A DNA stretch of 64,000 bases from Candidatus Falkowbacteria bacterium (GCA_037137775.1 JBAXJQ010000001.1:32316-96315); one strand, 5' to 3'; shown: positions 46,532-52,515, counted from the stretch's first letter. The notes: generated by a model from the sequence alone, not told the origin. Translations and numbers: made by a program.

Positions 46532-46945
46532 ATGACTAATAAAATTACAATTTATTCCGATGGCGGGGCACGTGGCAATCCAGGCCCAGCAGCCATTGGC
46601 ACGGTGCTGTATGATGAGGGTGGTGTAGTAGTTGCCGAAATTTCAGAATATATTGGTGAGACAACAAATAACCAAGCCGAATACAAGGCGATTATTGCTG
46701 GCCTAATTTGTGCCAAAGAGCTCGGTGCGCAAACGATTGAGTGTTTTCTTGATAGTCTTTTAGTGGTTGAGCAGTTAAATCATCGGTACAAAGTTAAACA
46801 CCCTGGCCTGGCACCCTTGTTTTTAGAAGTACACAATTTACGTCACCATTTTAAGCAAATTAGCTTTCGGCATATCCCTAGAGAAAAAAACAAAGCCGCA
46901 GATAAGTTAGTTAATTTAGCACTGGACAGGGAATTGGGCTGTTAG
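46532..46945 (+). CDS. rnhA: Ribonuclease HI
   Basis: IYSDGGARGNPGPAA, NNQAEYKAIIAGL, DSLLVVEQ and REKNKAADKLVN are RNase H catalytic motifs. Confidence 0.75.
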   Translation: MTNKITIYSDGGARGNPGPAAIGTVLYDEGGVVVAEISEYIGETTNNQAEYKAIIAGLICAKELGAQTIECFLDSLLVVEQLNHRYKVKHPGLAPLFLEVHNLRHHFKQISFRHIPREKNKAADKLVNLALDRELGC

Positions 46946-46967
46946 TATAATAAAAAATGTTTTTCAT

Positions 46968-47120
46968 TGTCATGCCGGACTCGATCCGGCATCTCGTAAA
47001 TTTCACCTGATACCGGATCAAGTCCGGTATGACAACAAGGTCGCATTCTGCCCAGGGCTGAACCGCCTTGGGCAGAGGCTCAGTTGGTTACCTGCCTGCT
47101 GGCAGGCTGGGAGCGCACTA
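46968..47120 (+). repeat. Cluster of four GC-rich palindromic hairpins embedding a partial copy of the tRNA-Val 5' half (acceptor 5' strand plus D-arm)
   Basis: GGTCGCAT[tctgcccagggctgaaccgccttgggcaga]GGCTCAGTTGGTTA[cctgcctgctggcaggctgg]GAGCGCAC reproduces nt 1-30 of the downstream tRNA-Val with two palindromic insertions. It is preceded by the CCGGA-N5-TCCGG hairpins gccggactcgatccggc and ataccggatcaagtccggtat. Confidence 0.55.
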
Positions 47121-47141
47121 TGTAGTAGAAAAAAAATATCA

Positions 47142-47215
47142 GGTCGCATGGCTCAGTTGGTTAGAGCGCACCGTTCACATCGGTGAGGTCCCAGGTTCGA
47201 GTCCTGGTGCGACCA
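47142..47215 (+). tRNA. tRNA-Val (anticodon CAC)
   Basis: Cloverleaf with acceptor GGTCGCA/TGCGACC, D-arm GCTC-AGTTGGTTA-GAGC, anticodon arm CACCG-TTCACAT-CGGTG and T-arm CCAGG-TTCGAGT-CCTGG. CCA is not encoded. Confidence 0.9.
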
Positions 47216-47224
47216 CAAGTAAAG

Positions 47225-47261
47225 TGTTTGTCCGTTAGGGCAAACAAATTATTTGTTTTTT
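47225..47261 (+). terminator. Terminator after tRNA-Val
   Basis: Hairpin GTTTGTCC-gtta-GGGCAAAC followed by aaattatttgtttttt. Confidence 0.55.
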
Positions 47262-47311
47262 AAACAAAAGTCCTCGCTAGTCACGAGGCGGATAACGCAA
47301 GGAGACTCACC

Positions 47312-47494
47312 ATGGATACCACCAATTTGGGAAGTCTTGTGGCCAAGACGCAAGTCGGGCAGGCAGTGTATTTAACCGCTTTTGGTAACACGGTAATAGA
47401 CCAGCTCCTTGGGATGTATAATTTTTACTGGAATTGGTTTTATTGCCCAACGGGCTTGCTATCAACTGACCGGAATGTGTCGACAGAAAATTAG
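47312..47494 (+). CDS. Hypothetical 60-aa protein with a strong RBS
   Basis: AAGGAG lies 7 nt upstream of the ATG, and the ORF is followed by an intrinsic terminator. There is no homology support. Confidence 0.3.
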   Translation: MDTTNLGSLVAKTQVGQAVYLTAFGNTVIDQLLGMYNFYWNWFYCPTGLLSTDRNVSTEN

Positions 47495-47532
47495 CCAGCC
47501 CTATCCTTGAACGCAGAATGCACTTCATCCTA

Positions 47533-47567
47533 CCCCCGGAGTTTTTTATCCGGGGGTGATTTTTTTG
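47533..47567 (+). terminator. Rho-independent terminator
   Basis: Hairpin CCCCCGGA-gtttttta-TCCGGGGG followed by tgattttttt. Confidence 0.65.
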
Positions 47568-52086: not shown

Positions 52087-52487
52087 TTCTAGGTCAAACA
52101 GGCGGCTGCTCGGGGCAAAAAATATGCCTCGGGAGGAAAGTCCGGACTCCAACAAAATGATGGTGGCTAACGGCCACGAGGAGTAATCCTACGGAAAGTG
52201 CCACAGAGACAATACTAGCTTCGAGTTAATCGAAGTGAAAGGTGAAAAGTTTCAAGAGGTTTTCGTTCTATTGGCTAGCCGTTTAACGAAGGCTACTTGA
52301 TTCGCTCCCATGTGAGTGGGATGCGTGGTAAACCCCATCTGGAGCAAGAGCAAACCTATAGGTTGTTGCATAAGCAATACGCTATAGATGAAAAGTGGCT
52401 CGCTTGAAGCGATTGGTAACAATCGTTCCAGATAGATAGTCGTCCTCTTAATTAAGAGACAGAATCCGGCTTACGGTTGGCCTAGAA
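52087..52487 (+). ncRNA. rnpB: RNase P RNA (bacterial rnpB)
   Basis: P4 strand GGGAGGAAAGTCCGGACTCC, the GTGCCACAGAGACAA region and the 3' ACAGAATCCGGCTTACGG are all conserved. P1 pairing is ttctaggtcaaac with ggttggcctagaa. Confidence 0.85.
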
Positions 52488-52515
52488 ATATCTGCATTGG
52501 TAAAATAAATAAATT

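Follow-up and report, generated by a model that had tools for sequence, protein, structure and literature searches.

Directly upstream of its complete tRNA-Val(CAC) gene, the 64-kb stretch of DNA analyzed here (the window) carries a truncated copy of the 5′ part of this gene (47038–47118) with a palindrome in the D-arm of the copy. The arrangement recurs at other loci in at least two phyla as a cassette of tRNA half-copy with strictly conserved palindrome, tiny GIY-YIG nuclease gene and intact tRNA. Judging from the sequences, we assign a probability of roughly 60% to the reading that the region in the window is an ORF-less remnant or a non-autonomous derivative of such a selfish cassette, which would enter tRNA genes at their 5′ side. 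We rate the window's copy as a degenerate example of the GIY-YIG cassette kind, and this reading would give an odd tRNA pseudo-fragment a concrete origin. Sequence and keyword searches found no description in the searchable literature of a tRNA 5′-half duplication combined with a D-arm palindrome and a single-domain GIY-YIG gene.

A broken copy of the tRNA-Val 5′ part

The complete tRNA-Val(CAC) was found by ARAGORN at 47142–47215/6 on the plus strand (Rfam tRNA, 69.1 bits; CCA not encoded) and is the sole tRNA that ARAGORN and Rfam placed in the window. An Rfam scan (E ≤ 10) returned, besides the tRNA, noise only. Genes for LepA, RecJ and RNase HI lie upstream, and a gene for a PD-(D/E)xK protein lies downstream. 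The relatives of this RecJ mark the DNA as that of a Falkowbacteria-like bacterium within the Patescibacteria (CPR). A sigma-70-like promoter, TGGACA-17-TATAAT (46923–46951, plus strand), agrees with the consensus at 11 of 12 positions, overlaps the RNase H stop codon and, as predicted from its position, would put the entire hairpin region and tRNA-Val on a single transcript. On the 3′ side of tRNA-Val, a terminator-like inverted repeat with a T-rich tail was found (47225–47246, plus strand). Two overlapping orphan ORFs of 60 aa (47312–47494, plus strand) and 73 aa (47307–47528, minus strand), both without a Pfam match, lie between this terminator and a strong one at 47531–47558; the 60-aa ORF is annotated in same-species contigs. 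Class A bacterial RNase P RNA is encoded 5 kb downstream of tRNA-Val (52090–52488, 224.6 bits).

About 100 nt upstream of tRNA-Val, its first 30 nt recur, as an earlier note on this DNA had claimed; together with base −1, 31 contiguous nucleotides are repeated with 31/31 identity in three exact and collinear blocks on the plus strand. Block 1, AGGTCGCAT (47038–47046), repeats the 9 nt at 47141–47149, i.e., base −1 and positions 1–8 with the acceptor 5′ strand and U8. Block 2, GGCTCAGTTGGTTA (47077–47090), repeats the 14 nt at 47150–47163 (positions 9–21, D-stem 5′ strand and D-loop), and block 3, GAGCGCAC (47111–47118), repeats the 8 nt at 47164–47171 (positions 22–29). The last block covers the D-stem 3′ strand, G26 and the start of the anticodon stem, where the copy stops. 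No copy of tRNA positions 31–74 follows the fragment, and the 3′ half is thus absent, as had been noted. Chance similarity, which the note had considered as an objection, does not account for the copy: aligned with gaps to tRNA-Val, the 196 nt upstream scored 38.4, a value reached by none of 1000 shuffles (17.8 ± 3.4), and all other 196-nt chunks of the window scored at most 30.4. In one same-species contig (L055), window position 47166, i.e., tRNA position 24, is changed from G to C. This would disrupt the C11–G24 D-stem pair of the real tRNA-Val and could be either an assembly error between both copies or a true variant.

The three blocks are separated by 30 nt (47047–47076) and 20 nt (47091–47110), and both inserts proved to be the palindromes that had been reported to split the copy. 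The first, hp1 (47047–47076, plus strand), is a 30-nt hairpin with an 11-bp stem, one G·T pair and an 8-nt loop, located between tRNA positions 8 and 9. The second, hp2 (47091–47110), is the 20-nt near-palindrome CCTGCCTGCTGGCAGGCTGG at the D-loop/D-stem junction between positions 21 and 22. It is 18/20 identical to the palindrome CCTGCCTGCCGGCAGGCAGG and can be read as an 8/10 palindrome or, alternatively, as a 6-bp stem with a tetraloop. Neither hp1 nor hp2 has a second copy elsewhere in the 64-kb window. The copy is followed by the A-rich spacer TATGTAGTAGAAAAAAAATATCA (47119–47141, plus strand), the last base of which belongs to the repeat. This leaves a gap of 22 nt to the tRNA, T ATG TAG TAG A8 TATC (tail after the stops AAAAAAAATATC), with an ATG 1 nt past the end of the copy and two stop codons at once thereafter.

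Upstream of the copy we found an inverted doublet of NTS/SRM-like hairpin repeats (46967–47035) with 34-nt arms (46967–47000 and 47002–47035), framed as TTGTCAT...ATGACAA. Its left unit (46968–46994, plus strand) reads TGTCAT-GCCGGA-CTCGA-TCCGGC-ATC and its right unit (minus strand, within 46967–47035) TGTCAT-ACCGGA-CTTGA-TCCGGT-ATC, i.e., GTCAT tag, palindromic stem, short loop and ATC tail are all present. The two CCGGA-N5-TCCGG hairpins described earlier as preceding the copy are located here, at 46975–46989 and 47013–47027, each in a perfect 8-bp-stem hairpin. There are three CCGGA-N5-TCCGG sites in the window versus 0.04 expected, and only one hairpin doublet in the 64 kb. The exact hairpin TGTCATGCCGGA-N5-TCCGGCATC was found in six unrelated viral or metagenome contig stretches (L184–L189) with 10 copies (about 0.04 expected, an estimate), among them inverted doublets of the same architecture, and in L186 a canonical NTS adjoins the CCGGA hairpin variant. 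TTGTCAT...ATGACAA-framed elements with hairpin ends also stand upstream of tRNA-Val in L003 and L004, and elements framed in the same format occur in further CPR loci (L010, L021, L022, L033). By its sequence, the CCGGA doublet belongs to a hairpin repeat superfamily that is known and widely dispersed. The published SRM pattern HGTCWY N0-2 YYVSBRH N0-5 WNVSBRG N0-2 RNCYNB had no match in the window, whereas the L003 element does fit it. Neither regex searches nor the cassette-family HMM found an ssn-like gene in the 64-kb window.

We also considered the right arm of the doublet as a diverged tRNA-Val T-arm and acceptor (20/26 identity, reached by 4–11 of 2000 shuffles) and rejected it: hairpin copies in unrelated genomes carry the GGATCAAGTCC loop and the ATGACA tail, these are hence a family trait, and the reading as a tRNA 3′ end was dropped. 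A doublet architecture like that of the CCGGA element, without the GTCAT tag, was observed in L008 (5651–5719), where a perfect palindrome with 31-bp arms carries a hairpin in each arm, GACAGAAG-ttgag-CTTCTGTC.

For hp1, the only outside link is to L003: the hairpin element in front of tRNA-Val there matches the 15-nt core of hp1, CCAGGGCTGAACCGC, at 14 of 15 positions, with a score reached by 2 of 2000 shuffles. A viral-contig scan returned no match to hp1, and no hp1 family was found among the metagenome matches listed for the hp1 core CCAGGGYTGAACCGC (from at least 120 stretches), which were rejected as chance, being located in unrelated, mostly high-GC DNA without hairpin context. The suggestion that the palindromes belong to dispersed families was borne out for hp2 and the CCGGA doublet only.

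GIY-YIG cassettes at other tRNA genes

A viral-contig scan with CCTGCCTGCYGGCAGGCWGG returned 38 stretches, some of them multi-copy and nearly all with perfect CCTGCCTGCCGGCAGGCAGG, where we estimated that chance would give less than one stretch. Whereas hp2 is unique within the 64-kb window, the palindrome is dispersed in public collections. The finding that, according to the note, would have favored a random duplication, namely palindromes without further copies, was thus made for the 64 kb but not for the public collections. It was also found without a GIY-YIG nuclease nearby, e.g., in phage tRNA-Met. In a tRNA-Met(CAT) on a phage contig (L215, 2239–2330), the 20-nt palindrome is a clean insertion in the variable loop, and without these 20 nt a normal 72-nt tRNA remains. 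Another palindrome-bearing tRNA-Met (L192, 8573–8650) has its T-arm partly deleted as well; a portal-like gene comes next, and no GIY-YIG gene is close by.

In intact cassettes, flank and a truncated tRNA 5′ copy with the palindrome are followed by a GIY-YIG ORF and then by flank and the complete tRNA. In L222, the tRNA 5′ part reads ...CCCCGGTAGCTCAGTTGGTA, palindrome, GAGCGGTTGGCT..., with the palindrome at exactly 21/22, as hp2; the copy precedes an 88-aa GIY-YIG ORF (Pfam PF01541), after which the uninterrupted 5′ sequence starts the real tRNA. The same layout was found on tRNA-Asn in L228/L229, L230/L231, L232 and L239, with the palindrome 20/20 at the same site. On a different tRNA, L246 has this layout with a distant nuclease homologue and a copy that ends at 28/29. 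On tRNA-His it was found in L233–L238 (Daviesbacteria, CPR), where the insert at 11/12 consists of a 16-nt core of the palindrome plus another hairpin, after which positions 12–25 of the copy continue. Truncated tRNA copies bearing the palindrome at 21/22 were located on Omnitrophica-like and unassigned metagenome contigs. The junction is GGTA, palindrome (20/20), GAGC in L222, the tRNA-Asn loci and L246 and GGT(T)A, palindrome, GAGC in the window. The palindrome is kept 20/20 even at a nuclease identity as low as 53% and next to a decaying tRNA copy (L239), which implies selection on the palindrome itself.

Cassette architecture was present in six of the seven family proteins whose context was looked up, the exception being P0141, which lies beside a tmRNA gene. 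The palindrome stands 30–40 nt upstream of every fetched ORF of the cassette subfamily. Copies end at positions 26–38 in the other cassettes and at position 29, likewise in the anticodon stem/loop region, in the window. The duplication takes in 3–17 nt of upstream flank, and the gap between copy and tRNA is about 270–340 nt in intact cassettes. The ORFs of 80–90 aa are predicted single-domain GIY-YIG nucleases with the UPF0213 single-domain GIY-YIG proteins 1ywl and 1zg2 as closest solved structures; the protein family comprises 758 clusters at E ≤ 1e-10.

The cassettes account for two annotation artefacts, namely ORFs that extend into tRNA genes and N-terminal extensions of the PACRQAG type. 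Among 150 family representatives, six contain a translated palindrome (PACRQAG or LPAGRQA), five of them in an N-terminal extension and one at the C-terminus, with confirmation at the DNA level for one. Moreover, several ORFs end within the tRNA, where a TAG at tRNA positions 8–10 serves as stop. The C-termini ...FPLSSVGRASGC or ...IPP of P0123, P0125, P0128 and others are the translated first bases of the downstream tRNA-Asn, and such tails, an annotation artefact, are at the same time a handy marker of the cassette.

Three further observations were made at these loci. In L231 (1441–1861) and L230 (90–480), palindrome-bearing 5′ copy and GIY-YIG ORF are arranged in tandem with at least two units, as unequal crossing-over between the repeated tRNA halves would generate. 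The intact tRNA downstream of the L222 cassette (824–1300) contains, after position 33, an apparent group I intron with an HNH endonuclease ORF; read in this way, two different selfish nuclease genes occupy one tRNA locus. In L228/L229 (998–1372), a 23S_rRNA_IVP-family gene lies between RecR and the GIY-YIG cassette. Genes of this family are normally found inside rRNA intervening sequences.

Origin of the copy in the window

The window differs from intact cassettes in the segment between copy and tRNA, where only 22 nt are found in place of an ORF of 80–90 aa. A search with the family HMM and motif regexes found no GIY-YIG gene or fragment, neither in this gap nor in the 64-kb window. As the gap contains no ORF, we class the feature with remnants or derivatives and not with intact members. 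In the intact cassettes compared (L228, L232, L233, L239, L246), the GIY-YIG ORF lies where the window has the spacer, and the ATG of the spacer stands 1 nt past the copy end, as ORF starts do elsewhere, which speaks for a remnant. The likeness of the spacer to an ORF start is weak (ATGTAGTAG versus ATGTATTAC), and we infer that the spacer may be a collapsed ORF. Against the remnant reading, no further ORF-less example was found, and no relative closer than 59% RecJ identity is at hand to show an occupied or empty intermediate. Moreover, the copy with its 31/31 identity looks young, whereas ORF loss and palindrome substitutions look older, and nothing corresponding to hp1 is present in the other cassettes.

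Related genomes were compared at this locus, as the note had proposed. The order RecJ–RNase H–tRNA-Val is conserved among relatives, of which the next-best in either collection shares only 59% RecJ identity. In the nearest ones (L001, L179, L180, L182; also L002 and L006), tRNA-Val starts a few bases past the RNase H stop, and the leader found in the window is missing. We hence conclude that the leader is inserted DNA and not an ancestral element. In same-species metagenome contigs the leader is unchanged, i.e., identical or nearly so.

In the mechanism that we propose, a cassette would insert at the 5′ side of a tRNA gene and bring along a duplicate 5′ part; the insertion would be tolerated because this duplicate leaves the tRNA gene whole. 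The promoter of the tRNA would also serve the nuclease gene, with transcription passing through the dead half-copy, and RNase P would free the tRNA from the 3′ end of the transcript. Driven by the nuclease, the cassette may be copied into tRNA genes that lack it. This may occur by homing-type repair, i.e., copying from an occupied allele, or by Campbell-type recombination, in which a circle bearing a truncated tRNA piece inserts. The structure of the intact cassettes fits either route. The palindrome might be the hairpin recognition site of the nuclease, by analogy to NTS for the Ssn nucleases, or it might interrupt the direct repeat and thereby protect the cassette from deletion by recombination. 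In the window, the nuclease gene would have been lost with 22 nt left, and the palindrome would have gained two substitutions; hp1 and the NTS/SRM-like doublet may have accumulated later in a dispensable leader, which is probably still transcribed with tRNA-Val and then trimmed off. As a variant that we consider very unlikely, the dead tRNA half and the palindrome would not be a by-product but a working cassette part, a structured DNA or RNA module made of a conserved hairpin scaffold with, on either side, a segment identical to the target tRNA gene. This module might guide a minimal GIY-YIG nuclease of one domain to tRNA genes, in loose analogy to the split guides of bridge RNAs, and the ORF-less copy in the window would in that case be non-autonomous and depend on service in trans.

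As main alternative to a cassette remnant, the copy may have arisen as a partial tandem duplication by slippage or unequal crossing-over that was later colonized by autonomous palindromes with a preference for tRNA-like loops, and would never have been a nuclease cassette. We regard this as improbable, albeit with some weight. Since the palindrome occurs without a nuclease nearby, it might invade tRNA-like DNA by itself; in many of its contexts, e.g., in the variable loop of the phage tRNA-Met, the GIY-YIG family is absent, and the window has no nuclease gene but three hairpin types within one 150-nt stretch. However, autonomous palindromes leave unexplained why the same truncation region, the tRNA adjacency and the exact 21/22 site recur, and why every looked-up cassette of the nuclease subfamily carries the palindrome. 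The note had proposed an older gene copy, decayed and colonized by palindromes. Of this, the 5′ copy and the dispersed nature of hp2 and the CCGGA doublet were borne out. The proposal is nevertheless incomplete, because the same palindrome, tRNA coordinate, truncation and place recur in the GIY-YIG cassettes of other phyla, and the copy is probably more than an old decayed gene that chanced to be colonized.

A further reading builds on the structured, co-transcribed leader raised by the note and takes the region as a functional 5′ part of the tRNA-Val precursor that is kept by selection, e.g., for processing, stability or folding. The good promoter upstream makes co-transcription plausible, the tRNA blocks are 31/31 identical, and the NTS-like hairpins differ by a compensated exchange of a G–C for an A–T pair that keeps each hairpin intact. 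The predicted fold is indeed very stable, far more so than shuffles (z = −8.0 to −9.7), as the proposed folding check confirmed; a z of −8.0 is, however, expected of a string of palindromes. We consider a functional leader unlikely: the closest relatives lack it and have the tRNA right next to the RNase H gene, no Rfam family matches it, and it is common only to same-species contigs, which are identical or nearly so and hence show no covariation. Moreover, its hairpins are copies of DNA repeats dispersed in unrelated organisms, and in the predicted fold the real 3′ end is open to competition by the pseudo-acceptor strand, which would be costly rather than beneficial.

The tRNA-Val(CAC) gene is a recombination hot spot on both sides. 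In L179 (4658–5017), L180 (4656–5050) and L182 (4660–4880), the 3′ end of tRNA-Val(CAC) is directly repeated downstream of the gene. These repeats begin in the T-loop, are 58 to more than 120 nt long and are abutted by a conserved hairpin, GGGGCTTCCGCCCC. They look like attL/attR of an integrated element that is miniature or decayed. The displaced 3′ copy in L182 matches the tRNA-Val of the window and not that of L182 itself.

With this hot spot in the clade and these att-like 3′-end repeats in mind, the copy in the window could also be the footprint of an integrase element that recombined in the anticodon stem, supplied a replacement 5′ half and was later deleted almost entirely. This is very unlikely. 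Only 22 nt lie between the repeats, no integrase is encoded nearby (the neighbors being LepA, RecJ, RNase H and PD-(D/E)xK), and the 30-nt tRNA-Val 5′ half, as attP candidate, had no match in viral contigs. Known tRNA-targeting integrases are said, following Williams in 2002, to duplicate the tRNA 3′ part, whereas the repeat in the window is the 5′ part of tRNA-Val; the note had correctly set it apart from a 3′-end att duplication. Shared palindrome and GIY-YIG architecture account better for the data. The note had also tied a recombination footprint to the PD-(D/E)xK nuclease and the orphan ORF downstream, for which we found no detectable link; the gene that fills the gap elsewhere encodes a GIY-YIG nuclease. 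Finally, a bulge-helix-bulge or multi-intron tRNA was rejected, as there is no 3′ half, the hairpins abut the blocks without bulges, and no intron family matched.

Comparison with known systems

SegB, Ssn/NTS, mitochondrial ORF insertions and integrase att sites each resemble the cassette in part, and none of them joins all three of its features.

REP and REPIN repeats, which are associated with RAYT, carry a GTAG or CGTC tag and reach high copy numbers. Similar to these and to NIME elements, the hairpins here are short, GC-rich and intergenic, single or as inverted doublets, and mosaic elements framed by hairpin repeats occur. The tag in the window, however, is GTCAT and not GTAG or CGTC, and the copy number is very low, with one cluster in 64 kb.

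Integrases leave tRNA gene fragments as attL/attR (PMC9897764). As in the window, a partial tRNA copy then stands beside a complete one, and the mobile element leaves the tRNA functional. An att fragment, however, is the 3′ part and lies at the far end of a multi-kb, integrase-bearing element, whereas the window has a repeat of the 5′ part across a 22-nt gap and no integrase. If the cassette is mobile, it would be a 5′-side counterpart of integrase-type tRNA targeting.

Mitochondrial ORF insertions combine a selfish nuclease ORF with a replacement gene segment, so that a displaced partial duplicate stands beside the intact gene, as in the cassettes. For Allomyces atp6, Paquin et al. reportedly described in 1994 the insertion of a homing-endonuclease ORF that duplicated part of the host gene. 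An atp6 intron that carries a partial exon duplication is known from fungal mitochondria (PMC7902536). These insertions concern protein-coding genes, mostly their 3′ ends, in organelles, in contrast to the bacterial tRNA 5′ half with conserved palindrome in the cassettes.

The free-standing GIY-YIG homing endonuclease SegB of T4 recognizes a motif conserved in tRNA and, by break repair, spreads both its gene and flanking tRNA DNA (PMC2330249). As in the cassettes, GIY-YIG nuclease genes are thus located among or beside tRNA genes. SegB is, however, a larger, multi-domain phage enzyme encoded between whole tRNA genes, for which no duplicated half or palindrome was described, whereas the cassette nucleases are predicted single-domain proteins of 80–90 aa and the window itself has no nuclease gene.

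In the Ssn/NTS system, as putatively in the cassettes, a small single-domain GIY-YIG nuclease is tied to a cognate hairpin repeat by its gene. Small GIY-YIG Ssn nucleases (cd10448) cut NTS/SRM hairpin repeats in single-stranded DNA, and a generalized Ssn-related motif (SRM) was published with a degenerate pattern (PMC11893778). In Neisseria, the NTS (dRS3/NTS) reads CGTCATTCCCGCG...GCGGGAATC, with the variant CGTCAT-ACTCGGG-N5-CCCGAGT-ATC (PMC11893778). The doublet in the window has this NTS/NTSvar format, GTCAT-stem-N5-stem-ATC; its hairpins, however, do not fit the SRM regex, and the 64 kb contain no ssn-like gene. In the Ssn paper, no link to tRNA genes is reported and the CCTGCC palindrome is not mentioned (PMC11893778). 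The cassettes may pair uncharacterized UPF0213-like nucleases with a defined hairpin site, which would be of interest after Ssn/NTS.
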